64,000 bases of DNA from Corallococcus exiguus (GTDB lineage Bacteria > Myxococcota > Myxococcia > Myxococcales > Myxococcaceae): NCBI RefSeq assembly GCF_051058965.1, contig NZ_CP183924.1. The stretch is one strand, 5' to 3'. A program made the position numbers and the translations under genes. The stretch's first letter is position 1. The number at the start of each line of letters is the position of its first letter. The notes under the pieces are model-generated. The model worked only from the letters and a program-made list of their open reading frames with translations, had not been told where the DNA came from and searched no databases. Positions 25,295 to 56,800 of this stretch are shown one piece after another.

Positions 25295-27013
25295 CTACTT
25301 GTTGATGCGCACCATGGCCACGTCGTAGTGGCGCTCGGTCACGTAGCCGTTCGCGGCCTTGCCGGGGCGGTACATGTTCCCGGTCTTGTCATCCACGTAG
25401 AAGCGGTTGTTCGGGTTCGTGTCCTTGCCCGTGCTGGCGTTCTTCGTGCCCGGGTCGTGGAACGTGTAGTAGGTGCGGCCCTTGTCGTCGACGCCGCGGC
25501 CCGTGATGGTCACGAAGTGGTCCGTGAGGCCGTCCGCGTTGTAGGTCGCGTCCTTGTGGCTCACGCCCACGACCACCGGCTTGCCGGCCTCCAGCTGCTT
25601 GTCGATGTAGCTGCGGCCCTCGGCGGCCTTCTTCGAGTCCACGTTGAGCGCGCCGACGCCGTTCTCGCTCTTGCCCACCTGGATGCGGCGGTCCGGGCCC
25701 AGCACGGTCGCGCCGGAGTCACGCGCCATCGCCGTCGCGGCCTTGAAGCACGCCGTGTCGCTCGCGGTGTAGCCGTGGCCGTTCTCGAACTGGCTGTAGT
25801 ACGGCACCTTCACGTGCACCGCCGGCTTGTCCTTGGACGGGGCCACCTGCTCCGTGTTCGCGGGGGCCGCCTCCGTGGTGGGCTTGGAGGTGTTCGTGCC
25901 CTGCGTCGTGGGCTTGCCTTCCGTGGTGCCCGGCTTCGAGCCGTTGTTCACGGACGGGGGAACCACGCCCGTGTTGGTGTTGGCCGGCTTCGTCGTGGTG
26001 CCCGACTTCTCCTGCTTCAGCATCGCGAGGGCGTCCTTCGCCTCCGACTTGAAGCGGTTGGCCACGCCCTTCTGCACATCCTTGGAGCTGCCGGAGAAGT
26101 GCACCAGGGTGCCGCTGGCGTTGGTGCGGCCGCGCTCGGCGTAGATGTCCTTGATGAGCTGCTCGTCGCTCACCTTCGCGGGGTCACGCCCGTTGAGCGC
26201 CTTCTTGAAGATGTCATCCGCCTTGCCCGGGCCGTGCTGCACGGAGGTGGACCAGGCCACGTCTCGCAGCGCCGCGGAGCGCTTGTCCAGGTCGATGCCC
26301 GTCGCCTTCTTGATGTTGGCGGCGCCCGCGTCGTAGTGCGTGGTCTTGATGTAGTCGTGCTGCGCCTTGTCGAAGCCCTTCGGGTCCTTCGCGGCCAGCT
26401 GCTTCCACGCGGCGGAGAACTCCGCGGTGCCCGGCTTGCTGCCCGACAGCGCCTTGTGGAAGTCCGGGTTCGTCTTCTTCAGCGAGTTGACGAACGACTG
26501 CGCGGACCCGTTCGCGGAGGCGAACTGGTAGGAGCCGTAGGACACGCCGCCCTTGTCACCCTTGCCCGTGGACACGGTGCCGGGGCCGCGAGCCTCGTAC
26601 TTGCGGCTCAGCCCGCCCAGTTCCCCGTTGGTCGCGCTGCTGGAGGACGTGTTCGTCGCGGGCGTCGTCGCCTTCGCGCCGTCCGTGGACTGCGTGAAGC
26701 TGTCGCCCGACGTCTTCGTCCCCGCGCTCGACTTGTTGGTGCCCTTCGTGTCGAAGCCGTCCTGCACCTTCAGCGTCTGGCCGGCCAGGATCTTGTTCGG
26801 ATCCTTGATGTTGTTCGCCTTGGCCAGCGCGTCAACGGTCGTGTTGTAGCGCTTCGCGAGCCCGGAAAGCGTGTCGCCCGAATTGACGCGGATGTTGGAG
26901 ACGGTCACGGAGAAGACCCCTCTATGTCTGGCCGCGACCAAAGGCGCCGCGGACGTGCTTGGATTGACCGGATTATCGAAAGGCAATGCGATCAGTTTCG
27001 CATTCCCAGTCAC
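25295..27013 (-). CDS. LysM-domain protein with a central unknown domain and a C-terminal C39-like (papain-fold) cysteine peptidase domain. Candidate peptidoglycan-targeting hydrolase or effector.
   Basis: LysM reads [48 protein letters not shown]. Low-complexity T/S/G linkers follow. The C-terminus carries [28 protein letters not shown], a Peptidase_C39_2-like YYSQ...C motif. Codon usage looks atypical (Lys/Asn/Thr-rich), and the flanking intergenic region is AT-rich. Confidence 0.65.
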
Positions 27014-27101: not shown

Positions 27102-28136
27102 ATGTCCAGGATCCAACCGGAATTCAAAAGTTTGGCATTACTGTTTGCCATTTGCGTCACGACCGCGGTCCCGGACGCCTCGGCTCAGGGGTCCGAGGGA
27201 CTCACGGGGGTCTATTCGAACAAGGGCGGGACGCTCGCCATCGTCGAAGGCAGCAACGAGACGCTCGTGCACTTCTCGGGCTCGTTCCCGCAGGGCAGCA
27301 GCGCGGGCACCTGCGATTGCGCCCTGGTCGTCCAGAAGAAGACAGTCACGAATTGGTCACTTCATCAGGCGGGTGAGGAAGACGCCTGGACGCTGCGCGT
27401 CAATCCCAAGCAATTCGTCCTGGAGTCGGGTCCGTCACCGTCCTGTTGCGGCGCCGGCTACCCAGGCAAGGACACGTTCGCCCGGAGTACCTCCAAGCCG
27501 CTGAGCATCTGCAAGGTGAAGGTGTCCAAGGCGGGCTTCCACGCGTCGGACGCGGCCAACACGCCGCGCAAGGCGTTCGTGGTGTCTGGCGACGCGGTGG
27601 AGGCCTACGTCGACCCGGTGGAGCCGGACTTCCTCGCCGCGCGCTTCCAGGGCCCCCAGAAGGCCACGGCGGGGCTGCTCAAGCGCGAGGACCTGGACTG
27701 CGCGGCGGAAGGCGCGCCCACGGCCGCGAAGGCTCCCGTGGCCGCGGACAAGCTCCAGCCCTTCGCGGGGACGTGGGTGGAGTTGACGCGGCAGGGCAAG
27801 GGCTTCGTGGTGCTCAAGCCCTGCTCGGCGGCGACGCGCAGCTTCACCGTCAAGCCCGCGACGGGCGAGGTGGAGGTGCAGTTGGGCCAGGAGGCCACGA
27901 CGATGAAGGTGACGTCCGTGGAGGCCGGCAAGGGCGCCGGGGCCTGGGTGCTGGGGCTCACGGCCGCGGACGGCAAGCCGGAGTCGCTCCAGTGGAAGAC
28001 GGCCGACGCCGCGAAGGGCACCGTGACCGTGAACAGCCCGGACCTCTTCTCCCAGAGCCACGACTACGTGCGCCAGGAGAAGAAGTCCGCCTTCCCGACC
28101 AAGCAGGAGACGGGATGCGACGAGTTCGAGCGCTAA
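27102..28136 (+). CDS. Hypothetical secreted protein (signal peptide, several Cys)
   Basis: The signal peptide ends MSRIQPEFKSLALLFAICVTTAVPDASAQG. I recognise no domain. It is divergent from the LysM gene across an AT-rich intergenic region (26940-27100). Confidence 0.55.
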   Translation: MSRIQPEFKSLALLFAICVTTAVPDASAQGSEGLTGVYSNKGGTLAIVEGSNETLVHFSGSFPQGSSAGTCDCALVVQKKTVTNWSLHQAGEEDAWTLRVNPKQFVLESGPSPSCCGAGYPGKDTFARSTSKPLSICKVKVSKAGFHASDAANTPRKAFVVSGDAVEAYVDPVEPDFLAARFQGPQKATAGLLKREDLDCAAEGAPTAAKAPVAADKLQPFAGTWVELTRQGKGFVVLKPCSAATRSFTVKPATGEVEVQLGQEATTMKVTSVEAGKGAGAWVLGLTAADGKPESLQWKTADAAKGTVTVNSPDLFSQSHDYVRQEKKSAFPTKQETGCDEFER

Positions 28137-38248: not shown

Positions 38249-39511
38249 TCAATGCTGGGTCTCGCGGTCCTTGATGAGCCGCTCCAGCTCTTCCCGGATG
38301 ATGGTCTCCGCCAGCTGCGGAACGACCTCCCAGGCAATCTTCTCGATGACCTCGCGGGACGCCTTCGACAGCGCCTCGCGCAGCAGCGCCTCTCCGCCAT
38401 CCGCGGCCGGACGGGCGCGCGCGGGCGGAGTCGCCGGCGAGGGACCGCCGATGTCCAGGGAGATCTCCTCCGCGCCGCTGGGCTCGGGCAGCGAGTCCTC
38501 GATGCGGATGCTCGCCGTGCGGGCCTGCGCGGCGGGCGGGGCGGCCGGAGCACCCAGCCCGAACGGATCCCGGGCACGGGCGGCCGGAGGCACCGCGGCG
38601 GGCGGGGGCGCGGACGGCAGCGGCGCGGCGCCCGGAGGACGCGGGAAGCCGCCCGGGATGTTCGGGGCGCCAGGGCCCGGAGGACGCGCGGCCATGCCCG
38701 GAGGAGGCGCACCCGGAGGACGCGCGCCCGGCGGCACGGCACCCGGCGGAGGACGCGCACCCGGAGGCATGGCGCCCGGAGGCGGCGCACCCGGAGGACG
38801 CGCGCCCATGCCCGGAGGCGGCGCACCCGGAGGAGGACGTGCACCCGGAGGCATGGCGCCCGGAGGCGGCGCACCCGGAGGACGCGCGCCCGGAGGCACA
38901 GCGCCCGGCAGCGGACGCGCCGCACCCGGAGGAGGAGGCACACCGGCGCCCGGAGGACGCGCGCCCGGAGGCACGGCACCCGGCGGAGGACGTGCACCCG
39001 GCGGCACGGCGCCCGGAGGCGGCGCACCCGCGGGACGCGCACCCGGCGGCACGGCGGCGGCGGGCGGCGCGCTGACCGGAGCGCTCGGGGCGGAGGTCTG
39101 GGGCAGAATGCGCGTCGCGGCGGACGCGGGCATCGTGTTGGACTTCTGGCCCACCAGCGCCTTCACCTTGTCGAGGAGGATCTGGCTCTCGAAGGGCTTG
39201 GTGATGTGGTCATCCGCCCGGGCGGCCTTCGCGCGGTTCTCGTCGAACGCCTCGAAGGTGCCGGCGAGCAGCAGCACCGGGATGGCCTGCGTGGAGGGGT
39301 CGCTCTTGAGCGCCTCGCAGACCTCGTAGCCGCTCTTGCCCGGCATCATCACGTCGGCGAGCACCACGTCGGGACGCATCTCGCGCGTGCGGGAGATGGC
39401 GTCCAGCCCGTTGTCCACCGCGGTCACCTGGAAGTCTTCCGTCGCGAAGATCATCCCGATCACCTTGCGGATGGTGAGCGAGTCGTCAGCGATCAGTAGA
39501 TTCTTGGGCAT
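38249..39511 (-). CDS. romR: Response regulator with an N-terminal REC domain, a long Pro/Gly/Ala-rich repeat linker (PPGARPPGA x many) and an acidic C-terminal domain. It is RomR-like (the polarity regulator of myxobacterial motility).
   Basis: REC reads MPKNLLIADDSLTIRKVIGM...DVVLADVMMPGKSGYEVC...PVLLLAG. An approximately 180-aa Pro-rich region is encoded by GC-rich tandem DNA repeats (38600-39060). The C-terminus reads EEISLDIGG...ALLREALSKASREVIEKIAWEVVPQLAETIIREELERL. Length from MPKNLL is 420 aa, matching M. xanthus RomR. Confidence 0.7.
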   Translation of the reverse strand: MPKNLLIADDSLTIRKVIGMIFATEDFQVTAVDNGLDAISRTREMRPDVVLADVMMPGKSGYEVCEALKSDPSTQAIPVLLLAGTFEAFDENRAKAARADDHITKPFESQILLDKVKALVGQKSNTMPASAATRILPQTSAPSAPVSAPPAAAVPPGARPAGAPPPGAVPPGARPPPGAVPPGARPPGAGVPPPPGAARPLPGAVPPGARPPGAPPPGAMPPGARPPPGAPPPGMGARPPGAPPPGAMPPGARPPPGAVPPGARPPGAPPPGMAARPPGPGAPNIPGGFPRPPGAAPLPSAPPPAAVPPAARARDPFGLGAPAAPPAAQARTASIRIEDSLPEPSGAEEISLDIGGPSPATPPARARPAADGGEALLREALSKASREVIEKIAWEVVPQLAETIIREELERLIKDRETQH

Positions 39512-39628
39512 CGGCTCCGGCCTCGGGGGGCGCATACCCCCCTGAATTCGTTTGAGATTTCGGGCGAGCAAGCCTGCCTGCACGCCCTGTGTCAATCGGA
39601 GAAGCTTAGGATTCGCGCGTTGGGCCGA

Positions 39629-40441
39629 TCAAGAAAACATGCGCTGCAGGTCCAGTAACATCACCGGATCCGGCAGCCCCGGCGCCCGGAACGTTCCAGG
39701 AAGCTCGGCCGGCTTGAACTTCTGCAGCACACCAAGCACCCGGGTGGCCGCCAGCCCCACGTTCCGCCCCGCCAGTTCCGTGAGGACGAACAGCTCCTCC
39801 ACCTGGGCCGGCGCACCCAGCAGCGCTGGAATCGAACAGATGGGCCATAGCGCCTGCGCGTGGGGATAGACGCCCGCCACCGGCCCGCTCTGCACCGGGA
39901 GCACGCTGAACGCCTCGCCCCGGGGCACCACCTGGGAGACACAACCCAGCGGGACGCCGAACAGCACCCCCTGGGATTCCAGCACCAGCGCCCGCTCCGG
40001 GGGCTCGTCCGCATAGTGCACGGGCCGGGGCTCCGGTGGAGTCGCCCGGGGGCCCGCCCGGTGCGGCAGCGCCTCCACGATGAGCTCCAGGTACAGCCGG
40101 TCCTTGTGCAGCACCGCGCCCCGGCTCAGCGGCGCCAGCGAATCCGCCAGGCCCGGAGGCAGCAGGAAGAACGGATCCCTCGCGACGTCCGCGACCTCCA
40201 CCACGGCGCGAACCCGCACCGCGAGCGTGGGGCTGACGTCCAGGACCACCACCATGCCCGCCACTTCCTCAGGCAGGCCGCCGAGCAGCGCGGCGAGGTC
40301 CTTCACTTCCAGTACGCCGCGCAGACTCGCGCCGCGAGCGCCCGGCATCGCGACCTCGATGACGGAGGTGGCCTCCACCGCGTAGCGCGTCTCTCCGGCC
40401 TCCACCAGCAGGCAGAGCCGCCGTCCGCTTTCAAAGGGCAC
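39629..40441 (-). CDS. CheW-like domain protein (tentative). It is hypothetical and conserved next to the RomR-like gene.
   Basis: Two segments resemble the CheW fold (RLCLLVEAGETRYAVEATSVIEV... and ALVLESQGVLFGVPLGCVSQVV). The similarity is weak. Confidence 0.4.
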   Translation of the reverse strand: MPFESGRRLCLLVEAGETRYAVEATSVIEVAMPGARGASLRGVLEVKDLAALLGGLPEEVAGMVVVLDVSPTLAVRVRAVVEVADVARDPFFLLPPGLADSLAPLSRGAVLHKDRLYLELIVEALPHRAGPRATPPEPRPVHYADEPPERALVLESQGVLFGVPLGCVSQVVPRGEAFSVLPVQSGPVAGVYPHAQALWPICSIPALLGAPAQVEELFVLTELAGRNVGLAATRVLGVLQKFKPAELPGTFRAPGLPDPVMLLDLQRMFS

Positions 40442-40494
40442 GGCCCGGGACCCTAGCAGCCTTCCAGCGTTGGGTGCTAAGCCCTGAGACAGTC

Positions 40495-41883
40495 ATGGCG
40501 CGACTGCTCCTCGTCGACGACGAAAAGATCGCCCGCAATCTCTACGGCGACTACCTCACGGCCGCGGGACACCTGGTCACGGCGGTGCCCACCGTGGCGG
40601 ACGCGAAGGCCGCCCTCTCCGCGGCACGGTTCGACGCGGTGGTGACGGACCTCATCCTCCCCGGCGGCGACGGCATGGAAGTCCTCCGTCACGTGCGCGA
40701 GCGCTACCCCGGCGTGGAGGTGCTCGTCATCACCGGCCTGGACAAGGTGGCCCCCGCGGTGCGCGCCATCAAGAGCGGCGCGGCGGAGTACCTGGTCAAG
40801 CCCGTGGCGCCGGAGGCCCTGGAGCACGCGCTGCGCCGCGCGCTCACCACGCGCGACCTGATGCGTGAGAACGCGTCCCTGCGCCAGCACGTCGCGCTGC
40901 TGGAGGCGGGCCAGCGCATCGCCACCACGCTCGACCGCGAGCGGCTGTCCACGGCCGCGTCGGACGCGCTGGAGTCCATGGCCAACGCCTCCGCGGTGAT
41001 GCTCCTGGAGCGGGACCCCGGTGGCACGGGCTTCCGCTCGCACGGCATGCGCGGACTGCCGGTGGACCTGCACGAAGCGCTCGTCCCGCAGCTCATCGAG
41101 CGGCTTTCGGGCACGCGCACGCAGGTGGAGCTCGACGGACTTCAAGTTCCCTGGCCGCGCACCCTCTCCTTCCCCGCCGTGGACGGCGAGCTGGTGCTGG
41201 GCCACGCGGTGCTCTTCCACGACAGCGCGCCCGTGGAGCACCACGCGGAGACGGTGGGCTTCCTCGTGCGCAACTGGGCGCTGGCCCTGCGCAACCTGGG
41301 CCGCTTCGCCGCCGTGGAGGACCTGGCCTACGTCGACGACCTCACCCGCCTGTTCAACACGCGCTACCTGCACCTGGTGCTGGACCGCGAGGTGAACGAG
41401 GCCCTCCAGACGGAGCGCCCCTTCTCCCTGCTGTTCCTGGACCTGGACCGCTTCAAGGCCATCAACGACACGCACGGGCACCTGGTGGGGTCGCGCGTGC
41501 TGGTGGAGGCCGCGCGCGTGCTCAAGGGCTGCGTGCGCGACCCGGACGTGGTGGCGCGCTTCGGCGGCGACGAGTACGTGGTGCTCCTGCGCGGCACGGA
41601 CTCCGGCGGGGCCCTCAAGGTCGCCGAGCGCATCCGCCGCACCATGGAGACCCATCAGTTCCTGGGCCGCGAGGGGCTGGCGCTCAAGCTCACCACCTGC
41701 ATCGGCGTGGCCAGCTTCCCGGAGCATGCCCAGGACAAGGACCACCTGCTGGACCTGTCCGACCGGGCCATGTACCGGGGCAAGCGTGGCACCCGGAACG
41801 TCGTCTACATGGCGGCGCAGGACCTGGAAGCCACCCCGGCCGAGCGCCGTCAGAATCCCCCGCCCCCGCAGGGACAGGGCTGA
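40495..41883 (+). CDS. Response-regulator diguanylate cyclase (REC-GAF-like-GGDEF)
   Basis: REC reads MARLLLVDDEKIARNLYGDYL...DAVVTDLILPGGDGMEVL. GGDEF reads RLFNTRYL...LFLDLDRFKAINDTHGH...VARFGGDEYVVLL, with an intact GGDEY active site. Confidence 0.85.
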   Translation: MARLLLVDDEKIARNLYGDYLTAAGHLVTAVPTVADAKAALSAARFDAVVTDLILPGGDGMEVLRHVRERYPGVEVLVITGLDKVAPAVRAIKSGAAEYLVKPVAPEALEHALRRALTTRDLMRENASLRQHVALLEAGQRIATTLDRERLSTAASDALESMANASAVMLLERDPGGTGFRSHGMRGLPVDLHEALVPQLIERLSGTRTQVELDGLQVPWPRTLSFPAVDGELVLGHAVLFHDSAPVEHHAETVGFLVRNWALALRNLGRFAAVEDLAYVDDLTRLFNTRYLHLVLDREVNEALQTERPFSLLFLDLDRFKAINDTHGHLVGSRVLVEAARVLKGCVRDPDVVARFGGDEYVVLLRGTDSGGALKVAERIRRTMETHQFLGREGLALKLTTCIGVASFPEHAQDKDHLLDLSDRAMYRGKRGTRNVVYMAAQDLEATPAERRQNPPPPQGQG

Positions 41884-41898
41884 AAGCCGGACCGCGCG

Positions 41899-42285
41899 CT
41901 ACTTGCGCAGGCTGCCCACGGTGAGCCGCTTGGGCAGCTCCACCTCGGCGGCCTCGGCGCCACCCTCGCTCACCGCCTCCACCTCTTCGTGAGACGCGCC
42001 GGTGGTGATGAGGCGGTACTTCTGCGACGCCTCGCGGTCGTGCTGGGCCTGCTCCGGATCCAACCGCGCGATGAGCTGCCAGAAGAGGGCCGCGTGCTCG
42101 CGCTCCTCGTCCATGACGTGCCGCAGGATGGCCTTCGCCTCCTCGTTGTCCGTCGCGTCCAGGTGCGCGGCGTAGAGGTTGATGGCGTCCAGCTCCGCCT
42201 CGATGTTGAGCCGGATGGAGCGGGCCAGTTCGGAGTCCGTCAGCTTCCGGGGCACCAGCGAGTGGAACGGGTTCGTCTGCGGCAT
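41899..42285 (-). CDS. Ferritin-like (EncFtn-type) protein with a C-terminal encapsulin cargo-targeting peptide. EncC-like orphan encapsulin cargo.
   Basis: Four-helix ferritin-like motifs are NIEAELDAINLYAAHLDAT and RHVMDEEREHAALF (ExxH). The C-terminus ...EVELPKRLTVGSLRK matches the myxobacterial encapsulin targeting-peptide consensus (LTVGSLR). No encapsulin shell gene is in the window. Confidence 0.65.
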   Translation of the reverse strand: MPQTNPFHSLVPRKLTDSELARSIRLNIEAELDAINLYAAHLDATDNEEAKAILRHVMDEEREHAALFWQLIARLDPEQAQHDREASQKYRLITTGASHEEVEAVSEGGAEAAEVELPKRLTVGSLRK

Positions 42286-42443
42286 GAAGACCTCAGCGAC
42301 AGGGAGGGTTTCCAGCAAGCGAGCGGGCAGCAGCATTTTCCGTCAGGCCGGGCCGGAAGGCGTGCGCGAGCATCCGTTCGGTCGCGAGCGCGGTCAACCG
42401 AATCCCGCTGGGGGTGCGTTGCACGTGAACACCTGCCTCCGCC

Positions 42444-43973
42444 ATGCTCCCGCGCATGGAGACCCCCTCGGCGCTCGCGCAGCTGCTCCAGGCCCTGGAC
42501 GCGGGGGACCTGGAGAAGGCACGGCTCGCGGCCGTGGCGCTGCAACGCTCCAACGCCCACACCCACCAGGTCGCCGCGGAGGTCCTCCACGAGCTGCGTC
42601 AGCCCCTGCTGGGCGCGAAGGCGTACGCCCAGCTGCTGGCCGAGGAAGGAGGCTCCAGCGGCCCGCTGAAGCTGCTGCTCGCGCAGGTGGAGCGGATGGA
42701 GCAGATCGTCTCCGACTTCATCCGCCTGGCCAGCGAGCGGCCGGCCCCGCAGCAGCGGCTGTCGCTGGCCGCGCCCATCTGGGCGGCGGCGAAGGTGTTC
42801 AGCGTCAACCCGGACTCGGCGCGCATCTCCCTGGAGGTGGAGGCCCCCGAGGACCTCACCATCCAGGGCAACGCGCGGCTGATTGAGCAGCTCACGCTCA
42901 ACCTGCTCAACAACGCCCGCGACGCCATGTCCGGCCGGGGCCGCGTGAAGGTGACGCTCGCGCGCGATGGCGCCTCCGCGGCCCTCTACGTGTCCGACTG
43001 GGGACCGGGCATCCCGGACGAGCTGAAGACGCGCATCTTCGAGCCCTACGTCTCCGCCAGCAAACGCGGCACGGGCCTGGGGCTCGCCGTCTGTCGTCGC
43101 ATCGCGCAGGAGCACCACGCGCAGATTGCCCTGGTGCCGCCCACGACGCTGCGCGAAGTGCCGCCCCCGGCCACCGTGTTCCGCGTGCTCTTCCCGCCCA
43201 CGGACGCGCCGCGCCCGCCGCGCAAGCGCCTGCTGGTGGTGGACGACGAAGGCATCATCCGGATGGTCTTCAAGGACCTGATGGACAAGGAGTGCGAAGT
43301 CATTGAAGCGGCCACGGGCGAAGCCGCGCTCGAAATCCTCCGCTCGTCGCCCGTGGACCTCATCGTCACGGACAAGAACCTGCCCGGGATCTCCGGCCTG
43401 GAGCTGGCCCAGCACGCGAGGAAGCTGGACCCCGCGTCGCGCGTCATCCTGATGACGGGCTACCCCTCGCTGGTGACGACGCAGCAGGCGCTGCAGCTGG
43501 GCCTGGTGGACTACCTGCTCAAGCCCTTCGACGACATCCGACAGGTGCGCGCGCTGCTGCGGCAGGCGCTGTACACGCCGGCCGCGCCGCCTGTCCCCGC
43601 CCCCAGCGCTGGCGTGCGCCGGGTGGACGTGCTGGAGGACAACCCGGCCACCGCGCGGCTGATTTCAGAGGCGCTGACGCTGCTGGGCCTGGAGGCGCGC
43701 GTCGTCGCGGGCGCGGAGGTGGCCACCATGGAGCCACCCGTGGGCGTGGTGGTGTCGTGGGACTTCGCGCCGGCCTACGGCAAGAAGGCGCTGGAGCTGG
43801 CCCGGGCCCTGAGCCAGGGCGCGCCCTTCGTCGTCCTGGCCGAGCACCTCACCATGGACACGGCGCTGGCGTCGCTGCGCGCCGGGGCCGCCGCGTGCCT
43901 GCCCAAGCTGCTCTCCGACACCACGGCGCTCAGCCGCGAGCTGGGCCTGGCCCTCAAGAAGACCGCTTCCTGA
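42444..43973 (+). CDS. Hybrid sensor histidine kinase (HisKA-HATPase_c-REC), cytoplasmic
   Basis: H-box HELRQPL, N-box LLNNARDA, G-boxes DWGPGIP and GTGLGLAVCRRI. The C-terminal REC reads LLVVDDEGIIRMVF...DLIVTDKNLPGISGLEL. Confidence 0.85.
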   Translation: MLPRMETPSALAQLLQALDAGDLEKARLAAVALQRSNAHTHQVAAEVLHELRQPLLGAKAYAQLLAEEGGSSGPLKLLLAQVERMEQIVSDFIRLASERPAPQQRLSLAAPIWAAAKVFSVNPDSARISLEVEAPEDLTIQGNARLIEQLTLNLLNNARDAMSGRGRVKVTLARDGASAALYVSDWGPGIPDELKTRIFEPYVSASKRGTGLGLAVCRRIAQEHHAQIALVPPTTLREVPPPATVFRVLFPPTDAPRPPRKRLLVVDDEGIIRMVFKDLMDKECEVIEAATGEAALEILRSSPVDLIVTDKNLPGISGLELAQHARKLDPASRVILMTGYPSLVTTQQALQLGLVDYLLKPFDDIRQVRALLRQALYTPAAPPVPAPSAGVRRVDVLEDNPATARLISEALTLLGLEARVVAGAEVATMEPPVGVVVSWDFAPAYGKKALELARALSQGAPFVVLAEHLTMDTALASLRAGAAACLPKLLSDTTALSRELGLALKKTAS

Positions 43974-44057: not shown

Positions 44058-45749
<1,692 letters not shown>

Positions 45750-45880: not shown

Positions 45881-46237
45881 CTACTCCGCGAAGCGCACGA
45901 GGTTGAGCAGCTGCCCCATGTCCAGGGGCTTCTGCAGGGTGATGGCGACGCCCTTGCGCAGGCCCCGGTCGGAGATGTTGGCGTCCGTGCTGGCGGTCAT
46001 CATCAGGACGGAGATGCGCTGGAAGCGGGGGTCCGCCTTCAGCATCTCCGTGAAGTGGATGCCGTCCAGGTGGGGCATCAGGTAGTCGGTGATGACCAGC
46101 CCCACGGGGTGACGCTCCATGATGTCCAGGGCCTGGAGCGCGTCCGACGCCGAGAACACGGTGTAGCCATGCATCTCCAGGTAGCGAGAGAGCATGGTGC
46201 ACAGCTCGTAATCGTCGTCGACGACCAGGATGTTCAC
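45881..46237 (-). CDS. Single-domain (CheY-like) response regulator
   Basis: MNILVVDDDYELCTMLSRYLEMHGYTV...GLVITDYLMPHLDGIHF...ISVLMMTAS...QKP carries the REC D/D/T/K residues. Confidence 0.8.
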   Translation of the reverse strand: MNILVVDDDYELCTMLSRYLEMHGYTVFSASDALQALDIMERHPVGLVITDYLMPHLDGIHFTEMLKADPRFQRISVLMMTASTDANISDRGLRKGVAITLQKPLDMGQLLNLVRFAE

Positions 46238-46325: not shown

Positions 46326-47399
46326 ATGGCGAAGCGCATGGCGAAGCAAGGGGAGGCGCGAGGCGTGGACGCGCGGCTGGAGGAGGTCGCGGACGCCTTC
46401 GAGGCCAGGGACTTCGAGGCCGCGCTCACCAGCGCCGACGCCCTGCTCCGGGACGTTCCGGACTCACCAGAAGCCCTGCACTACCGGGCCGCCGCGCTGG
46501 TGGAGGTGGGACGCCTGGAGGACGCGGGCAAGGCCTATGGCGCCGCCCTCAAGATGTCCCCGGAAGACCTGGAGATCCTCTTCGGCGCGGCGGAATTCCT
46601 CGTGTGCCGCACCGGCGAGGACCGCGAGGCGGTGGAGGAAGGGCTGGAGTGGTGCGGCCGCGGGCGGAAGCTGGCGCAGCGGACCGACGACGTGGAGCTC
46701 GTCTACGAGTTCCTCCTCCTGGAGGGCATGGGCCTCAACCAGTTGGGGGAATGTGAGTCCGCGCTGAAAATCCTGGACCAGGCGCTGACGCACATGCCGC
46801 GCTCGACGGACGCGCAGCTGGAGCGGGGCATCGCGCTGTTCGAGTTGTGCCGCTTCGCGCCCGCGCAGGAGGCCTTCGAGCGGGTGTTGAAGGACGCGCC
46901 GGACGAGGCCTGGGCGCACCACTACCTGGGGCTGGTCGCGGAGCGGCGCCAGGATGCGAAGGAGGCGAAGAAGCGCTTCTCCCGGGCGCAGGCGCTGGCC
47001 CCGGAGGAGCTGCCGCCGCCGGTGGCCCTGGAGGAGGCGGCGTTCGACCGCGCGGTGGAGGACGCGATGCGCGCCCTGCCCTCGCAGGTGAAGCAGTACA
47101 TGGACAACGTGACGCTGGCGGTGGAGGACCTGCCGTCGGATGAGGACCTGCTGGGTCAGCAGCCGCCGCTGTCGCCGTGCATCCTGGGGGTGTTCCGGGG
47201 CACGCCCGTGGGCGAGCGCAGCGTGATGGACGCGGCGGATCACTTCCCGCCCTCCATCGTGCTGTACCAGAAGAACCTGGAGCGCTTCGCGCGGACCCGC
47301 GAGGAGCTCATCGAACAGATTGGCATCACGGTGATGCACGAAGTCGGTCACTTGATGGGTCTGGATGAAGACGACCTGTGGGAGCGGGGGCTGGACTAG
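46326..47399 (+). CDS. TPR-repeat protein with a C-terminal zincin-like metallopeptidase domain (Zincin_1/DUF1025-like)
   Basis: The N-terminal TPR-like helices are PEALHYRAAALVEVGRLEDAGKAYGAALKMSPED... and ...AWAHHYLGLVAERRQDAKEAKKRFSRAQALAPEE. The C-terminus reads ITVMHEVGHLMGLDEDDLWERGLD (HExxH...GLxE). Confidence 0.65.
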   Translation: MAKRMAKQGEARGVDARLEEVADAFEARDFEAALTSADALLRDVPDSPEALHYRAAALVEVGRLEDAGKAYGAALKMSPEDLEILFGAAEFLVCRTGEDREAVEEGLEWCGRGRKLAQRTDDVELVYEFLLLEGMGLNQLGECESALKILDQALTHMPRSTDAQLERGIALFELCRFAPAQEAFERVLKDAPDEAWAHHYLGLVAERRQDAKEAKKRFSRAQALAPEELPPPVALEEAAFDRAVEDAMRALPSQVKQYMDNVTLAVEDLPSDEDLLGQQPPLSPCILGVFRGTPVGERSVMDAADHFPPSIVLYQKNLERFARTREELIEQIGITVMHEVGHLMGLDEDDLWERGLD

Positions 47400-47725: not shown

Positions 47726-50125
47726 TCAGGCGGCGCGCGAGCCCTTGTCCTCGAAGTAGGCGCGGCGGGCGCGGGCGCAGGTGGGGCACTGCCACTGCAC
47801 CAGGGTGAGGTGGCGGTCGCCCAGGACGACGGCCTCGTGGCGGAGCGACTCCCGAGGGGCCTCGCTGGTGGCTCCGCAGGCGCAGCGCAGCCGGTCCAGC
47901 GTGGAGAGCAGCTCCTGGGGGCTGGTGATGGGGATGGCGGACCCGGCGCTGTCGCCCCGGTGGTCCGCGTCGAACTTGCGTGCGAAGGCGCGGCGCCGGC
48001 CCCAGGCGCGGCCCTTGCGCCAGAGCGCCACCGGGCCGCCCTGCGCGATGACGAACCACAGCACGAGGCACGTCGCGATGACGCCCAGGAGGATGACACC
48101 CGCCTCGCCGGACGGAACGGACGAGGCCTGGTCGCGGGCGGCCCGGCTCCTGAGTTGGATGGCGTAGCCGCGCTGGGCTTCGGTGGTGCGCACGGCCTTC
48201 ACGTACTCGGCGATGCGCTCGGGCGGGACCGAGTCCGCGGTGCTGCGATAGCTGTAGTCGAGCAGCAGCGTCTTGCCTTCGGCGCGCGTGTCGGCCACGA
48301 AGCGGAAGGCCGGACCGTCCACGACCTCGTACTCCGTTTTGACAGGGGGCAGCTCGCCGGCCTTCAGCGTGATGCGGTGGCGGGCGAAGACGGGGTGCTC
48401 CACCTCCAGTGGGTAGGCTCGGTGGGAGTAGTTCGGCACGGCGAGGTGCTGTCGCAGGCCATGCGCGCGGAACTCCCGGCGACCGTCCGAGGTCCAGAAG
48501 TCCTCGATGCGGTAGTGCTCTTGCGTGACAAGCACGTTCGTCACGGTGTCGTCGTCCACCGTCAGGGGCTTCGCGATGGAGATGTTCGCGTCCGTCTTCG
48601 CGTAGTAGTTGAAGTAGAGGCGGGACACCTCGGACAGGGACGTGCCCGCGAGCGCGCGGCGCATGGAGTTGGCGGCCGCCCCCGTGCGCGTGGTGACGAC
48701 GTCGAGTGTCGCGGCCCCGTCGCGGCCCATCGCGACGTAGGTCTCGTCCACGAAGATGGAGGGCTCCGTCAGCGTGGGCGTGGGGATGACGGAGAGCGCC
48801 GTGGTGGCGGGGGCGACGAGGAGGGCCCGGCCGTAGGAGGGCGGCTCGTAGCTGTCGAGCCCGCCGCGCTCCAGCGCCGCCGTGGGATCCACCCACAGCT
48901 CGCGGCCAGCCACGGTGGCGTGGACGATGACGTGGTTGAACGCGGTGGCGGTGGGACGCAAGCCGTCCAGCAGCTGCGTGAGGTCCGTGCTCACGAGCGC
49001 CGGCTGCGCGTCGATGCCCAGCCCCTTGAGGAGCGACACCAGGAGGAGCGACTTGTCCTTGCAGTCGCCGAAGCGGCGCTGGAGGACCTCGTCGGGCGGA
49101 TGGGGCTGGTGGGAGTTGGCGCCCATCTCGATGCCCAGGTAGCGCACCTCGTCCTGGACGAAGCGCAGCGCGGCGAGGAAGCGCGCCTCCGGGGTGGGCT
49201 CCTTCGAAAGCCGGCGGACCTCCTGCTCCAGCGACTTCGAGCGGGCGGGCACCTGGAACAGCGTGGAGGCCCAGCGCGCGACGTCGTTCCAGTCCTTGTA
49301 TTCGCTGAACTGGATCCACGGGTAGACGGGCTGCCAGCCGGGGACGTTGTCCTCGTGGCGGACCGCGGGCACGTGGTGGCGCTCCAGGATGATTTCACGT
49401 TCGCCATTCAGCATCGACTCCGAGCGCGACAGGCCCGGCGCGGCGAAGTCCCGGATGAAGAGCGTGCGCCCCCGCCCTTCCGGCCACAGCAGCCGGTAGG
49501 CGAAGTGGACCACGGGATAGGAATGGCCCACGCCGACGACGTCGGAGAAGCGTCCGCCAAAGACGGGGTTGGCGCCTTCGAAGGAGTACGCGACCTCCAC
49601 CGTGTCGCCCACGCGCACGTCGCGGAGGAAGGGCACCACGGAGAGGTTGCCGTTGTAGAGCCGGTTCTGGAGCTCGGTCTCCTGCTGGATGACCCGGGCC
49701 TCGGCGGGCTGGAAGACGTCCTCGCGGCGGCCGTCGCGGATGCGCCAGATGCCGTGGACGGTGAGCTTCTGGTACGTCGGATCGAAGCGGAACTGGATGT
49801 CCGTGACGCGGTCGATGCCCCGCGGCGAGAGGACCTTCTGGGCCGAGTGCAGGTAGTGCTCGCGCGATGGGCCGGACACGCGCACCTGTTCCTCGATCAG
49901 CAGCCGGGAGACGCTGGTCTCCTCCTCGCCCTCGGGCGTCGGGCCGGGGTCTGGAGGAATGGGAAGCGGCTTCACCCACGCGGCGGGAGGCCCGACGCGG
50001 AACGGCCTGGCGTTCGTCGCCGCCGGTGCCGCCCCGGCGCTCAAGGACAGACACAGACACAGCAGCAGGACGGACACCGGAAAGAAGTCCGGTACCAGGA
50101 GGACGGAACGGAAGGTTCGGCGCAT
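47726..50125 (-). CDS. DUF3857 + transglutaminase-like domain protein with a C-terminal TM segment and a Cys-rich zinc-ribbon-like tail
   Basis: Signal MRRTFRSVLLVPDFFPVSVLLLCLCLSLSAGAAP. The transglutaminase core is RRFGDCKDKSLLLVSLLKGLGIDA. The late TM is GVILLGVIATCLVLWFVIAQ. The tail reads ...CACGATSEAP...CPTCARARR. Confidence 0.7.
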   Translation of the reverse strand: MRRTFRSVLLVPDFFPVSVLLLCLCLSLSAGAAPAATNARPFRVGPPAAWVKPLPIPPDPGPTPEGEEETSVSRLLIEEQVRVSGPSREHYLHSAQKVLSPRGIDRVTDIQFRFDPTYQKLTVHGIWRIRDGRREDVFQPAEARVIQQETELQNRLYNGNLSVVPFLRDVRVGDTVEVAYSFEGANPVFGGRFSDVVGVGHSYPVVHFAYRLLWPEGRGRTLFIRDFAAPGLSRSESMLNGEREIILERHHVPAVRHEDNVPGWQPVYPWIQFSEYKDWNDVARWASTLFQVPARSKSLEQEVRRLSKEPTPEARFLAALRFVQDEVRYLGIEMGANSHQPHPPDEVLQRRFGDCKDKSLLLVSLLKGLGIDAQPALVSTDLTQLLDGLRPTATAFNHVIVHATVAGRELWVDPTAALERGGLDSYEPPSYGRALLVAPATTALSVIPTPTLTEPSIFVDETYVAMGRDGAATLDVVTTRTGAAANSMRRALAGTSLSEVSRLYFNYYAKTDANISIAKPLTVDDDTVTNVLVTQEHYRIEDFWTSDGRREFRAHGLRQHLAVPNYSHRAYPLEVEHPVFARHRITLKAGELPPVKTEYEVVDGPAFRFVADTRAEGKTLLLDYSYRSTADSVPPERIAEYVKAVRTTEAQRGYAIQLRSRAARDQASSVPSGEAGVILLGVIATCLVLWFVIAQGGPVALWRKGRAWGRRRAFARKFDADHRGDSAGSAIPITSPQELLSTLDRLRCACGATSEAPRESLRHEAVVLGDRHLTLVQWQCPTCARARRAYFEDKGSRAA

Positions 50126-50303
50126 GGAGGAAGGGCGCTCATCATGGAGCCCGGATGACGCGCCGGGCAAGGCGCCCCCTGGGACACCGGGCGAGCGGCC
50201 CCGCTTCATTCACCAGTGAAAACCGTCATGCAGGCCAAGCCTGGAATTGCCGTGACACGGGCTAGGGTTCCGGCCATCGGTTGGAAGGCCCAGGAGGCTG
50301 GCG

Positions 50304-51314: not shown

Positions 51315-51413
51315 GGTAGGGCCTCCGGACCTGGTGGCCGGCCCGGTCTTCAAAACCGGTGAGGGGCTGCGAGAGCAGTCCCTGGCGAGTTCGATTCCCG
51401 TGCCCTACCGCCA
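51315..51413 (+). tRNA. selC: tRNA-Sec (selC-like; anticodon UCA)
   Basis: I folded it by hand. The acceptor stem is 8 bp (GGTAGGGC / GCCCTACC) with discriminator G and an encoded CCA at 51411-13. The D-stem is CCGG/CCGG. The anticodon stem is CCGGT/ACCGG with loop cTTCAaa (TCA at 51350-52). The variable arm is long, 8 bp (GGGGCTGC-gaga-GCAGTCCC), resembling E. coli selC. The T-loop is TTCGATT, with one A.C mismatch in the T-stem. Total length 99 nt. Confidence 0.6.
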
Positions 51414-51507: not shown

Positions 51508-53790
51508 ATGGCACGCTTGTCCGTACTCCGTGCCGATGGATGCAGGTCCGTGACCGGGTACCCCGGACCGGTTATACGTCCCCCGTTCACCAGGGGAGAC
51601 ACCGTGTCCGAAGAGTTGGAGGTCGCTAGCGCATGCTGGTTGCTGTTCAAGAAGGCGCGGGAGTGGCCCTCCAAGAAGCTCTTCGCCCGCAGCTACCCCC
51701 ATTGGGCCGCCCCCGTCCTGAGCTCCCAGAAGAAGTGGCCCCACATCCATGTCAGTAGCGAGATCAGACCTGACTGGGAACTCCTCTTCATTCTTCCGGA
51801 GACGCGCACCCTCCTCGCCCCGCTCCCTGCATTCATCCGTGATGTGGCCGCCCGGGTCGTTGCGAACCCCATTTATCGCAACGATCATTCATCGCGGTTG
51901 AACCTCACGCTGAAGGACTTCGAGCGATTCTGGAGCAACGCCGATACAGCCAGGCTCGCGGCAGATCTGCTGACCAAGCTGTGGAATCCCTGGCTCGGCT
52001 GGGGAAGCTCAGATTCGGAGGGCGTCAGGTTCCATCCACACCTGGATGTACTCCGATATGAGCATGTCCAGGGGCTCGACGAGTTGCTTCAGCAAAGCCA
52101 CCTGCCGCCGAGCGGCGCCCAGAAAAAGGTCGCCGAGCCCGAAGGCACGTATCTGCAGCTCCTGCACCGGATTCACGAGCATCTCAAGCGAACTGGCACC
52201 TGGCCCGAGGCCGTTCCCTTCACGGTAGCGCACCGCGACCTTGGCTTCATCCCGGATCTCGTCGACCGGCTTGAACCCGAGTTCATCCGGAGAGCATGGA
52301 AAGGGACACGGGACGAGAAACTCAAGCTCACCTTCAAGAGCCTTGACCGGGTCACATCCGCGCACGAACGACACCTTCTCGCTCAGGCAGTCCGGGCCAT
52401 GGCCCAGATCTGGCTGGACACGGATGAGCCCGATTCCAACTTCGGCATCACCGCCGAGATGGTTGCGCATGAATCGAAGCTTTCGCAGGCAGAGGTGGGC
52501 CCCTTGTTGCGATACCTGGAGCAGGCGTTCTGGGTAACAATCGAGCCCTCGGACTGGGTGGAACAGCCCTGGAAGTTACTGGTCAATGACAAGATTGGCC
52601 TCCTGAAGAACGTGGAGATCTGGGAGGATTATCTCCGAGCCATCCAAGAGGAGGAAAAAGCTCAGCACCATGCGGTAATCAGTTCGGTTGATCTGGAACG
52701 ACTCGCCAACGTATCAGAAGGCTTTTTCGCACCAGCCCGCGAGCCGCCCGCCCTGGGTAAGAAAGGGCGCAGCCGACGCGCCAAGAAGGCAAAGCCGATA
52801 TTCATCAGCCATGCCGCGAAGGACAAGGAGCTTGTCGATGCCTTCGTGGAGCTTCTTGTGTTCGGAATGGGCGTCGACGCCGACGACATGGTCTGCAGTT
52901 CCCTGAGTCAGCAGGCTGTTCCATTGGGAAACAAGTTCAGGGATTACCTGAGAGATTCCGTCAATGGCTGCTCCCTGTTCATCTGCCTCGTCTCCAAGAA
53001 CTTCTACGCCAGCACGTTCGCTCTTTGTGAAGTCGGTGCGGCCTGGGGCGCAAATAAGATCATTGTCCCCGTGATGGTGCCTCCCCTGGGGCCAGAGGAT
53101 CTGGAAGCCGTGCTCCAAGATGGATGGCAGGCCGTCGAGCTACTGAATGGCGACCAGTTGGCACAAGTGGAAGGACTTCTCCGCAAGCACCTCGGGGGTA
53201 CTGGCGACATCGGCCGCTGGAACCACCAGCTTCGGAAGTTCCTGAAAACGGCTCGGGAAGTGGGGCAGGATGCCTCCAGAGATGCTTCAGGCCAGGACAC
53301 TCACTCACCTGAGCGCGCAGGTCATGACATACACAAGCAAGCAGGAGCGTCTTCCAGCGTCCGAAATGTCCAAGCCTCTGACCCGCCGGACTGGCAGACC
53401 TTCGTGAAGCTTGTTGGGGCGGTAAGAGCGGCCAGCGAACCGCTCTCTCCCGTGCTGCGAGCGGCAGCCTATGCGACAGGCTCTGGAATGGCGGGAGAGG
53501 TTATCGGCAGAGATTACAAAGACATCCGTGACGCTGAAGACCGCGGCATGCTCGTGTTCGACGCGAACAAGTTCTGGGCGGACGACGACAGCCGGCTCAT
53601 GCGCAGTGTTGTCGAGCCCTTCAATGCCTTGAAAGGCTTCCTCCAGCAGGCAAGCGATCGCTTCCACCTTGAGCACGAGAAACGATACGGGTTTGTCGCG
53701 GATATGCAGAAGCTGCGATTCGCGGAAGTACACATTGGGTTCAGCTGGGTCTACGGCACACCGGATCCGGACGACAACATCCCATTCTGA
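51508..53790 (+). CDS. Large (about 760 aa) hypothetical protein with a central TIR-like domain. It is the first gene of the post-tRNA island.
   Basis: A central block reads KKAKPIFISHAAKDKELVDAFVELLVFGMGVDADDMVCSS...GNKFRDYLRDSVNGCSLFICLVSKNFYASTFALCEVGAAWGANKIIVPVMV. This is the TIR_2-like pattern (FISH...D, then SKNYxxSxWC.E). I could not assign the N-terminal approximately 430 aa or the C-terminal approximately 230 aa. GC is noticeably lower than in the flanks. The start is uncertain (ATG 51508 or GTG 51604). Confidence 0.55.
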   Translation: MARLSVLRADGCRSVTGYPGPVIRPPFTRGDTVSEELEVASACWLLFKKAREWPSKKLFARSYPHWAAPVLSSQKKWPHIHVSSEIRPDWELLFILPETRTLLAPLPAFIRDVAARVVANPIYRNDHSSRLNLTLKDFERFWSNADTARLAADLLTKLWNPWLGWGSSDSEGVRFHPHLDVLRYEHVQGLDELLQQSHLPPSGAQKKVAEPEGTYLQLLHRIHEHLKRTGTWPEAVPFTVAHRDLGFIPDLVDRLEPEFIRRAWKGTRDEKLKLTFKSLDRVTSAHERHLLAQAVRAMAQIWLDTDEPDSNFGITAEMVAHESKLSQAEVGPLLRYLEQAFWVTIEPSDWVEQPWKLLVNDKIGLLKNVEIWEDYLRAIQEEEKAQHHAVISSVDLERLANVSEGFFAPAREPPALGKKGRSRRAKKAKPIFISHAAKDKELVDAFVELLVFGMGVDADDMVCSSLSQQAVPLGNKFRDYLRDSVNGCSLFICLVSKNFYASTFALCEVGAAWGANKIIVPVMVPPLGPEDLEAVLQDGWQAVELLNGDQLAQVEGLLRKHLGGTGDIGRWNHQLRKFLKTAREVGQDASRDASGQDTHSPERAGHDIHKQAGASSSVRNVQASDPPDWQTFVKLVGAVRAASEPLSPVLRAAAYATGSGMAGEVIGRDYKDIRDAEDRGMLVFDANKFWADDDSRLMRSVVEPFNALKGFLQQASDRFHLEHEKRYGFVADMQKLRFAEVHIGFSWVYGTPDPDDNIPF

Positions 53791-53839: not shown

Positions 53840-56800
53840 ATGAGCGGCACGGCCCCCAAGAGCTGGGATCTCTTCCTCAGCTACAACAGCAGAGACCATG
53901 CGCTCGCGACGAAGCTGGCCTACCGCCTGCGCAGTGAGGGGCTCCAGCCGTGGTTCGACAAGTGGGAGCTGATTCCAGGGGAACCGTGGCTGCCCGCTGT
54001 AGAGCATGGAATCGCAGAGTGCCCATGCATGGTGGTGTGCATCGGAGCCTCTGGCTGGGGGCCGGTCCAGGACGCCGAAGCCCAGAACGCACGGATTCGC
54101 GCCATGCTCGACAGCAAACGACGGGTCATCCCAGTGTTCATGGCCGGAGTCGAACAGGTCGAGCTTCCAGGGCTGCTGAAGAACCTGGCGTATGTTGACC
54201 TCCGAGGGAACTCCGACGAGGAGTTTCGACGATTGACCCTGGCGATTGGAGGCCTCACCGCCAAACCGAGACCCGCGACCGTCGGCGATTGCCCCTACCG
54301 GGGGCTGCAACCCTTCGAAAGCCGGCACGCCGGGATGTTCTTCGGCAGGCAGGAAGATGTCTCGGGCCTGCTCGACCGGCTAGGTCGCGCACAGCGCCTG
54401 CTTCTCATCGTGGGCCCCTCTGGGAGCGGTAAGTCGTCACTGGTCATGGCGGGGCTGCTTCCGGCGGTCGCTTCCGGGCAGCTCCATGGCTCGTACGACT
54501 GGCGTGTTGTCAGCGTGCGCCCGGGGGTACGGCCCTGCCATGAACTCGCGGTGGCCCTGGGCAGCCTTGATGAAACGCCGCCCGCGGACGGGGTGGCTCG
54601 CCTCCAGGCTCGCCGCAAGTGTTTGCGTGAGGACCCCGAGTCACTCAGCGACCAGGTGGACCTCCTGCTTCAACAGCTGCCGCGCGCTTGTCGGCTCCTG
54701 TTGCTTGTCGATCAATTGGAAGAGGTGTTTTCGCAATGTCAGGACAGCGCAGACCGAGAAGCCTTCCTGGCCAACCTCGTACATGCGGGGACCATCGCAG
54801 GAGGTCGCGTGCATGTCGTGGCGACACTTCGCTCGGACTTCCTCGGTCGCCTTCAGGAGTGGCCCGGAATCGCAGGGCACCTGAACGGCTCCACATATCT
54901 CATGCGCTCGATGGCCGAGGCCGAGCTGCATGAAACCGTGGCACAGCCAGCGCAGCTCTCTGAACTGCGCTTCGAGCCGGGGCTCATCGAGGAGCTCCTC
55001 ACCGCGGTGCGCGCCCAGCCAGGTGACCTCCCCCTGCTCCAGTTCACGCTGCTCCAGCTTTGGAAGGAGCGCCAGGGAGACACGCTCACCTGGGAGGCCT
55101 ATGAGCGCATCCGTCGGCTGAAAGGGGCCATCACGCGCAGCGCGGAGCAGTGCCTCTTGACGCTCACGGAGCCCCAGCAGTCCTTGGTCCCACGGGTGTT
55201 CCGTCGACTGGTTATCGTCGGCGACGAAACCGGCGACACGCGCCGCCGCGCTTCTCGTGAAGAACTCGAAGCCCTTGGAGCAGAGGTCCCGATAATCCTC
55301 GAGCGCTTCATCTCCGAGCGCCTGCTGGTGGCCAGTGACGGTCTGGTGGAGTTGGCCCATGAAGCCCTGGTGCGCGGCTGGGAGCGACTCCGCGAATGGC
55401 TGGAAGAGGAGCGAGAGCTCCTGATGCTGCGCCAGGAGGTCGAACGTGCTTCGGAGGCATGGCGGCGCTCCGGTCAGTCCACCGACGAACTCTGGAGGGG
55501 CAGCCGTATGTCGCGGACTGGGGAGCTGAAAGACGCCCTGGCTCCCCTTCTCACCGAAAGGGAGCGGGCCTTTCTGGACGAGTCGAGAGAAACGCTGCGC
55601 CGCGACACCGAGCGTGCCGATCTGGCCGTGGCGAGGATGCTCGCGATGCGCTCGGCACAGGTGCGTCCACATCGCCCCATGCTGTCCGTGCTGCTGGCCC
55701 GCGAGGCGGTCAGGCGCTACTCCCACCCCGAGACGCGCTCGGAGCTGTACGCCGCACTGCTGGACAGCCCACTGCGCGAGGTCATCCAACTGGCGGGAGG
55801 AGCAAGAACCGGACAGCCATTGTTCCGTCCGAGCCCTGATGGGGCGACGTTCTTCGTGTGCTCAAGCGGTATGGCGGCACTTGTGTCGCGGGCTGGGAAG
55901 CTCATCACGGAGCTGCCCGTGAAGAGCCTCGACGTGAAGTTCGTGAGATTCAGTCCGGACAGAGAGCGGCTCGCAGTCATTCCCACCCAGCGCGTCGAGG
56001 GAATCGCGGCGTGGCTCTTCAGCGCTCGCGGAGAACTCATCTCCACACTCCGGGATGGCGGTTCTCAAGAGCCAACCGACTGTGCAAGCTTCAGTCCGGA
56101 TGGGCAGCATCTTCTGACCGCGCGCAGCGATGGCGCCGTGCGACTGTGGAATGTCGCCCTTGGCCATGCTGCGTATCTGCCCACCGGTGTAGGCTTTTCC
56201 TACGGACACTTCAGTCCAGACGGAACGAGGCTGCTTACGCTGTCCTCCGAAAGTCGTACAGCGAACCTATGGAGCACCGAAGGTGAGCGGCTCCACGAAC
56301 TGAAGGGGCACGAGCACCGAATCATCCATGGAAGGTGGAGCCCGGACAGCACCCATGTCCTCACGAGCGCAAGGGATGGTACCGCACGCATCTGGGACCG
56401 GGATGGCAAATCCATTGCGACACTGACCGGACACGCTGCTCCGCTCACCTATGGCTCTTTCGACCCTTCAGGCAGCCGCGTCCTTACGGTCAGTGAGGAC
56501 TCCACCGCGCGGCTCTGGGATTTGACGGGCAAGAGCCTCCTCATTCTTCGTGATGCGACCCGGGCGCTTGAGTTCTGTTCCTGGAGCCCCCAGGGCCGGC
56601 ACTTCCTGACCTGGAACCAGCATCAACTGCGCATCTACCGTGACAGTGGCCGGCTCCTCACCACGCTTCAAGAACACGAGGTGCCCGGGCGCGACCATGC
56701 AACGTGGAGTTCGGACGGAGCGTCGCTGATGACGTCGCACGCCGGCAGACATGACAAGGAGGGGCCTGAGATCCAGGTCTGGGCCGTGGAACCCGCGCCG

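Follow-up and report, generated by a model that had tools for sequence, protein, structure and literature searches.

A 64-kb stretch of DNA, here called the window, carries at positions 41899..42285 of its minus strand a gene that is very probably the Corallococcus ortholog of encC, which encodes a ferritin-like cargo of the myxobacterial type 1 (T=3) EncA encapsulin. An initial annotation of the window had proposed an encapsulin cargo here, and an open reading frame (ORF) occupies exactly this interval, from the ATG at 42285..42283 to the TAG at 41901..41899. The ORF encodes 128 amino acids plus the stop codon (MPQTNPFHSLVPRKLTDSELARSIRLNIEAELDAINLYAAHLDATDNEEAKAILRHVMDEEREHAALFWQLIARLDPEQAQHDREASQKYRLITTGASHEEVEAVSEGGAEAAEVELPKRLTVGSLRK), beginning with MPQTNPFH and closing with the C-terminal stretch ELPKRLTVGSLRK, whose last residues are PKRLTVGSLRK. 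Its GC content at third codon positions (GC3) is 0.94, in the range of genuine genes in the window, which has an overall GC content of 68%. We assign the DNA to Corallococcus, not Myxococcus, because the best-matching loci belong to this genus. Specifically, a scan of species-representative genomes for the EncC locus yielded at least 17 loci, and the best among the matches listed come from C. exercitus SDU142, C. carmarthensis and Corallococcus sp. RDP092CA (95-96% protein identity), with the DNA of these three loci sharing ~94% identity with the window across 14-18 kb. An EncC ortholog in this conserved position, with a counterpart that has been characterised both structurally and biochemically, is already known.

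Searches with the translated product point to EncC. The top match in a PDB search is M. xanthus EncC (7S8T), aligned end to end with E=2e-63 and 215 bits, and the two proteins are 81% identical over their full length (130 amino acids aligned). Ranking below are other encapsulated ferritins, among them M. xanthus EncB (7S5C; E=1.5e-6, 31.8 bits), and bacterioferritins, which match with E values of at least 0.027. The nearest database sequence examined is COCOR_03315 (AFE05153.1) of C. coralloides DSM 2259, with 98% identity. In Pfam, the best family is EncFtn-like PF22277 (36.4 bits against a cut-off of 27), which covers residues 21-82 (42040..42225, minus strand), a domain of two main helices that holds the ferroxidase-centre residues. 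The NCBIfam model NF058679, EncB_fam ('EncB family encapsulin nanocompartment ferritin-like cargo protein'), likewise exceeds its cut-off (112.2 versus 90 bits). Thus, the EncFtn-like identity proposed in the initial annotation is borne out by both models, and the comparison with M. xanthus EncC and EncB, which it recommended, singles out EncC, with EncB far more distant. Its description of the product as a four-helix protein is imprecise, since an EncFtn monomer has just two main helices; a four-helix bundle, along with its di-iron site, forms only at the dimer interface (bioRxiv 10.1101/063495). The ferritin-like region of the window protein spans only ~60-85 residues, which is not the self-contained four-helix monomer of a classical ferritin, bacterioferritin or rubrerythrin.

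The extreme C-terminus of the protein also resembles that of an encapsulin cargo. Residues 119-128, KRLTVGSLRK (41902..41931, minus strand), form the predicted targeting, or cargo-loading, peptide, with the core LTVGSLRK at 41902-41925. We aligned 26 EncC orthologs from Corallococcus, Myxococcus, Pyxidicoccus, Stigmatella, Hyalangium, Archangium, Vitiosangium, Aggregicoccus and metagenome-assembled genomes, and the peptide columns read K-[RQ]-L-T-V-G-[SNG]-[LMF]-R-[RKP] at the very end of the proteins. Residues T122, V123, G124 and R127 are invariant, and K119 and L121 are retained in 90% or more of the orthologs. The preceding residues 103-118 (EAVSEGGAEAAEVELP; 41932..41979, minus strand) constitute a flexible linker that varies in both sequence and length, such that alignment columns 104-123 are hypervariable and gapped. 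A disordered linker ahead of the targeting peptide has been described (PMC11126975), and the combination of a drifting linker with a constrained tail is the pattern predicted by a docking peptide. Furthermore, translation of the full window in six frames contains a single instance of the motif L[TS][VI]G[SNT][LM], located at the C-terminus of EncC. Mononucleotide shuffles produce on average 0.1 instances in any position and 0.01 no more than 6 residues from a stop.

The published consensus for the M. xanthus EncC targeting peptide is RLTVGS(N)L(M) (PMC11202242). The initial annotation had matched LTVGSLRK to the myxobacterial cargo-loading peptide, and this match is sustained both by the published consensus and by the conservation of the peptide across genera, unlike that of the linker. 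Since the EncFtn models are passed as well, the protein is not the generic ferritin-like or domain-of-unknown-function protein that would have spoken against the proposal. In cryo-electron microscopy structures, the Leu, Val and Leu side chains of the peptide lie in a hydrophobic cleft of EncA, the peptide Arg forms salt bridges with EncA Asp39 and Asp214, and the terminal Arg of EncB and EncC touches EncA Asp214 and Tyr217 (PMC11126975).

The di-iron ligands expected of an encapsulated ferritin are also in place. Residues E31 (42193-42195), Y38 (42172-42174), E61 (42103-42105) and H64 (42094-42096), which together span 42094..42195 on the minus strand, are invariant in all 26 aligned orthologs, and E61-x-x-H64 constitutes an EXXH motif. 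Residues 26-85 match residues 27-86 of the Rhodospirillum rubrum EncFtn chain (5DA5). With this offset of +1, E31, E61 and H64 map to Glu32, Glu62 and His65, which have been established as di-iron ligands by crystallography and mutagenesis (bioRxiv 10.1101/063495). By analogy with the M. xanthus work, the window EncC would be expected to have ferroxidase activity, and its 81% identity to the crystallised decamer 7S8T suggests that it likewise forms a two-helix monomer, an antiparallel dimer and a decameric ring.

If this protein is an encapsulin cargo, then where is its shell? No credible EncA-type shell gene is detected in the window by tblastn with M. xanthus EncA, a probe that we checked to be identical to PDB 4PT2, and Pfam scans of 38 window ORFs, including the neighbours of encC, yield no member of the Linocin_M18 or HK97-capsid families. 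These two approaches concur with the initial annotation, which had reported that an HK97-fold shell gene is missing from the window. A weak tblastn match at 51694-52192 on the minus strand (E=0.011 in the tabular output and 0.15 in the full report) was rejected because it has 25% identity, is interrupted by a stop codon and falls on the strand opposite a TIR-domain gene.

The shell gene resides elsewhere in related genomes. EncA orthologs named as such by NCBI are available from C. coralloides, C. exiguus, C. exercitus, C. macrosporus and Corallococcus sp. RDP092CA, the last of which carries both EncC and EncA. In the Corallococcus loci, encB (162-166 amino acids, EncFtn-like, ending in PLTIGSLRR followed by a Gly-rich tail) lies directly upstream of encA (290 amino acids) in one operon, and a gene for a REC-sigma54-activator protein comes after encA. 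Five EncA sequences from Corallococcus share 94% identity with their M. xanthus counterpart and retain D39, D214 and Y217. In three complete Corallococcus genomes, encC and encA are separated by 1.60-1.64 Mb: positions 4,086,113 and 5,685,012 of CP003389.1 (1.60 Mb), 4,033,415 and 5,663,959 of CM137252.1 (1.63 Mb), and 5,964,197 and 7,604,802 of CP114039.1 (1.64 Mb), respectively. Because encC is unlinked to encA, its product would have to be loaded in trans. These data support classifying the window EncC as a 'secondary cargo' that would be loaded into the shell in trans, as published for M. xanthus and in line with the trans loading into a distal encapsulin proposed in the initial annotation. 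The term 'orphan' cargo used in the initial annotation is correct to the extent that the shell gene is not nearby, but it overstates the case, since cargos encoded away from the shell operon are an established category under the name 'secondary cargo' and thus a normal state (bioRxiv 10.1101/085266).

Three alternative explanations deserve consideration. It is extremely unlikely that the gene encodes a free cytosolic di-iron carboxylate enzyme resembling COQ7 or rubrerythrin, with no tie to encapsulins and an incidental C-terminal motif. This possibility is suggested by weak Pfam matches, with COQ7 reaching 25.7 bits against a cut-off of 23.5 and Rubrerythrin 26.2 bits against 22.8, and by the source labels of EncC orthologs, which include 'demethoxyubiquinone hydroxylase family protein', 'rubrerythrin' and 'ferritin'. 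However, the COQ7 match is limited to profile positions 2-59 of 169, such that the ~170-amino acid domain is not matched in full, the Rubrerythrin match is similarly partial (positions 5-90 of 137), and the NCBIfam equivalog DMQ_monoox_COQ7 reaches only 14.1 of the 180 bits that its cut-off requires. The EncFtn-specific models outscore both families and exceed their cut-offs, the M. xanthus protein with which the window product shares 81% identity is known by structure and proteomics to be an encapsulin cargo, and the C-terminal peptide of the window product is constrained while the neighbouring linker drifts freely. That the gene might instead be an EncB-type core cargo, or a recent duplicate of encB, has a negligible probability. 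Although the best NCBIfam model bears the name EncB_fam, and the EncFtn fold and an xLT[VI]GSLRx peptide are common to EncB and EncC, identity to Corallococcus EncB is 37% across 65 amino acids only, and the NCBIfam EncB 'exception' model returns 27 bits versus a cut-off of 210. Moreover, the length, N-terminus and synteny are all EncC-like, and the window protein has neither the long Pro-rich linker nor the Gly-rich tail that follows the peptide in EncB.

A third scenario, which we consider very unlikely, accepts the identity of the protein but holds that it is stranded: the strain has lost encA, and EncC functions as an EncFtn decamer outside any shell, with ferroxidase activity but no storage cavity. 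The window does lack encA, as this scenario would have it. In contrast, encB-encA is found in every Corallococcus genome examined, EncA is 94% conserved with respect to M. xanthus, and the intact targeting peptide has the same sequence as in encA-bearing relatives, even though decay would be expected had the shell been long lost. We therefore favor the interpretation that the window gene encodes EncC, a secondary cargo of EncA, while recognizing several observations that weigh against it. The presence of encA in the window's own genome is inferred from relatives rather than observed. In addition, the last residue of the window EncC is Lys, as is common to the Corallococcus clade, whereas in M. 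xanthus EncC it is Arg; this change is conservative. Finally, the promoter-like element that precedes encC (see below) was not found ahead of encB in the four Corallococcus loci inspected, and with no promoter motif common to encC and encBA, co-regulation with the shell has no sequence support.

EncC of M. xanthus is physically present in purified shells (PMC11126975, PMC9321382), and the native particle holds ~92 copies of EncC per shell, with both the decamers and the ferroxidase centre described (PMC11126975). Based on this work, a plausible sequence of events for the window protein can be outlined. EncC monomers would pair in an antiparallel manner to create a ferroxidase centre at the dimer interface, and five such dimers would form a ring-shaped decamer. 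During assembly of the EncA shell, the LTVGSLRK peptides may dock in hydrophobic pockets on the inner shell surface and so tether the decamer to the T=3 shell. Docking would presumably involve hydrophobic contacts made by the Leu, Val and Leu side chains, as well as salt bridges from the Arg and the terminal Lys to EncA Asp39, Asp214 and Tyr217. Once inside, EncC would oxidise Fe2+ to Fe3+, to be mineralised in the lumen, and iron storage of this kind could limit Fenton chemistry and iron-driven oxidative damage in starvation or oxidative stress.

Comparison with known systems places the window protein closest to two characterised or sequenced relatives. M. xanthus EncC (MXAN_4464, UniProt Q1D3Y8, PDB 7S8T) has nearly the same length (130 versus 128 amino acids), the same MPQTNPFH start, the same EXXH, Glu and Tyr ligands, the same layout of linker and LTVGSLR, and the same flanks of valS, romR, two CheW domains and REC-GGDEF on one side and histidine kinase and groEL on the other, and it too is unlinked to encA. 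It differs in genus, in a linker of other sequence that is longer by 2 residues and in its terminal Arg, and the window protein is known from sequence. C. coralloides COCOR_03315 has an identical neighbourhood and lies 1.60 Mb from encA on the same chromosome; it differs by a few linker substitutions and is labelled 'hypothetical protein' or 'demethoxyubiquinone hydroxylase family protein'. The core cargo EncB (MXAN_3557) shares the EncFtn fold, the EXXH ferroxidase centre, the decamer and a C-terminal xLT[VI]GSLRR for the same EncA pocket. However, EncB is encoded directly upstream of encA, is 158-166 amino acids long with its long Pro-rich linker and Gly-rich tail, and has ~37% identity in the ferritin-like domain. 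More distant are the EncFtn proteins of R. rubrum (Rru_A0973, 5DA5) and Haliangium ochraceum, which resemble EncC in their two-helix monomer, dimer-interface di-iron site, decameric ring and C-terminal peptide, but are core cargos encoded beside a T=1 shell and have the peptide consensus SLGIGSLK instead of RLTVGSLR (PMC11202242). He et al. reported 33% identity between R. rubrum EncFtn and MXAN_4464 in their preprint (bioRxiv 10.1101/063495).

The start codon assigned to encC deserves comment, because a mechanical list of ORFs begins this reading frame at an ATG at 42336, which would yield a protein of 145 amino acids. This longer version was rejected on the basis of several features. The 26 orthologs, from many genera, are 127-133 amino acids long, and all 26 begin with MPQT. 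A Shine-Dalgarno-like GAGG, read from the letters, is situated 5 nucleotides 5' of the ATG at 42285 (42291..42294, minus strand) and would be appropriate for initiation there. Lastly, in the alignment of related loci, nucleotide conservation drops away just ahead of the 42285 ATG.

The setting of encC is also conserved. On one side lie nadC (33813-34697, minus), valS (34701-38195, minus), a RomR-like gene whose product combines a REC domain with a Pro-rich region (38249-39595, minus), a gene for a CheW-domain protein (39629-40441, minus) and a REC-GGDEF gene (40474-41883, plus), whereas the other side holds genes for a hybrid histidine kinase (42444-43973, plus), GroEL (44058-45701, minus), a single-domain REC protein (45881-46237, minus) and a TPR/zincin protein (46326-47399, plus), all named from Pfam annotation. 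The order valS, romR, two CheW domains, REC-GGDEF, encC, histidine kinase, groEL, REC and TPR/zincin is collinear in most of the at least 17 loci, which derive from Corallococcus, Myxococcus, Archangium, Citreicoccus and metagenome-assembled genomes and have 74-94% nucleotide identity. The neighbourhood in C. coralloides is in identical gene order. In M. xanthus, MXAN4460 encodes ValRS, 4461 RomR, 4462 two CheW domains and 4463 REC-GGDEF (PMC2034494), MXAN_4464 is EncC (PMC11202242), and MXAN_4467 is GroEL. The initial annotation had noted both the signalling genes near groEL and a romR, encC and groEL order like that of M. xanthus. Each of these flanking genes is present, and the order equals that of the published MXAN4460-4467 locus.

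A collinear valS-romR-encC-groEL arrangement also appears in a record named 'Comamonas sp. KCTC 72670' (BNCN01000007.1), with ~81% nucleotide identity and an EncC that is 83% identical. This record is Myxococcus-like myxobacterial DNA under a Comamonas name and is probably either mislabelled or contaminated. Within the conserved neighbourhood, the valyl-tRNA synthetase (34701..38195, minus) carries a low-complexity C-terminal tail of ~110 residues that matches the histone-H1-like HC2 and extensin-like Pfam models, and this tail is found in C. coralloides as well. A DUF3857/transglutaminase-like gene (827 amino acids; 47726..50209, minus) is shared with C. coralloides. The C. exercitus SDU142 locus is collinear except that it lacks precisely this gene.

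The gene encC is divergent from the hybrid histidine kinase gene, and the 158-bp intergenic region between them contains blocks that are conserved across genera (42369..42420, minus strand), which are candidate promoter or operator elements. One of these is a promoter-like element, TTGACC-N17-GATGCT (42369..42397, minus strand), whose two hexamers are invariant in the window and in 17 related loci from Corallococcus, Myxococcus, Archangium, Citreicoccus and metagenome-assembled genomes. Further upstream of TTGACC is a GCAA.GC core that is invariant in the same set and reads GCAACGC in all but one locus. A strict consensus scan of 41700-42600 for sigma-70 promoters and terminators called nothing, the TTGACC-N17-GATGCT element included, which came to light solely through alignment across genera, and a promoter function for this element is therefore only putative. 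On the strand facing the kinase gene, the conserved GCGTTGC was also considered by eye as a sigma-54 (-24/-12) promoter. This reading was rejected, as the distance from GG to GC falls short by one base and the -24 region is not conserved.

Why is encC unlinked to encBA throughout the sampled genera of Myxococcaceae, and set among genes for polarity, cyclic di-GMP and two-component signalling? One speculative answer, which we regard as unlikely, is that the separate location and the promoter-like element of encC reflect a distinct regulatory input that tunes the ratio of EncB to EncC, and hence iron loading. If so, the encC input would respond to a signal other than that for shell synthesis, and its source might be the divergent hybrid histidine kinase. 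Regardless, the conserved promoter-like element provides a small handle on how an unlinked cargo and its shell are coordinated.

The three-part iron-storage encapsulin composed of EncA, EncB and EncC, with encC unlinked, is conserved from M. xanthus to Corallococcus, a finding of little import beyond annotation. The annotation of EncC orthologs by NCBI and JGI nevertheless merits attention, as 'hypothetical protein' is used in addition to the three labels quoted above, and none identifies an encapsulin cargo. Such misleading labels hide secondary cargos from operon-based encapsulin surveys. The mislabelled orthologs should pass the existing NCBIfam EncB_fam model.

Beyond the conserved neighbourhood, the region left of nadC has no synteny with the C. 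coralloides locus. This region contains a homolog of the eukaryotic major vault protein (MVP; 758 amino acids, 30833..33109, minus) ~9 kb from encC. It is recognized by the Pfam Vault repeat models and by MVP_shoulder (151 bits), and residues 111-742 match rat MVP (PDB 4HL8 and 2QZV) with E~2e-138. Bacterial MVP homologs, including C. coralloides H8MNI3, have been described (Daly et al., 2013; PMC3762200). The vault homolog was rejected as an alternative cage for EncC, given that no evidence links the two and that the targeting peptide is specific to EncA-type shells. It adjoins an HmuY-like gene (29713..30747). Nearby is a gene for a protein of 572 amino acids with a LysM domain and a C-terminal domain like that of type VI secretion system VgrG3, which is peptidoglycan-degrading (25295..27013, minus), followed by two ORFs without a Pfam match (27102..28136 and 28133..29788).

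At the other end of the window, homology to related genomes ends at ~51413, at a tRNA-Sec gene (51315..51413, plus). Genes upstream of this tRNA have GC3 values of 0.9-0.97, compared with 0.61-0.74 downstream. An att-like repeat of the tRNA-Sec 3' end was not found within the window. The segment 51315..64000 looks like an island of NLR-like/TIR conflict systems inserted at tRNA-Sec. Its genes encode a TIR protein with similarity to SpbK (51508..53790), a TIR-nSTAND1-WD40 protein of 1384 amino acids (53840..57994), a TIR-WD40 protein of 1232 amino acids (58264..61962, minus) and a protein with MAP3K_TRAF_bd and TPR-S domains (62388..63890, minus).

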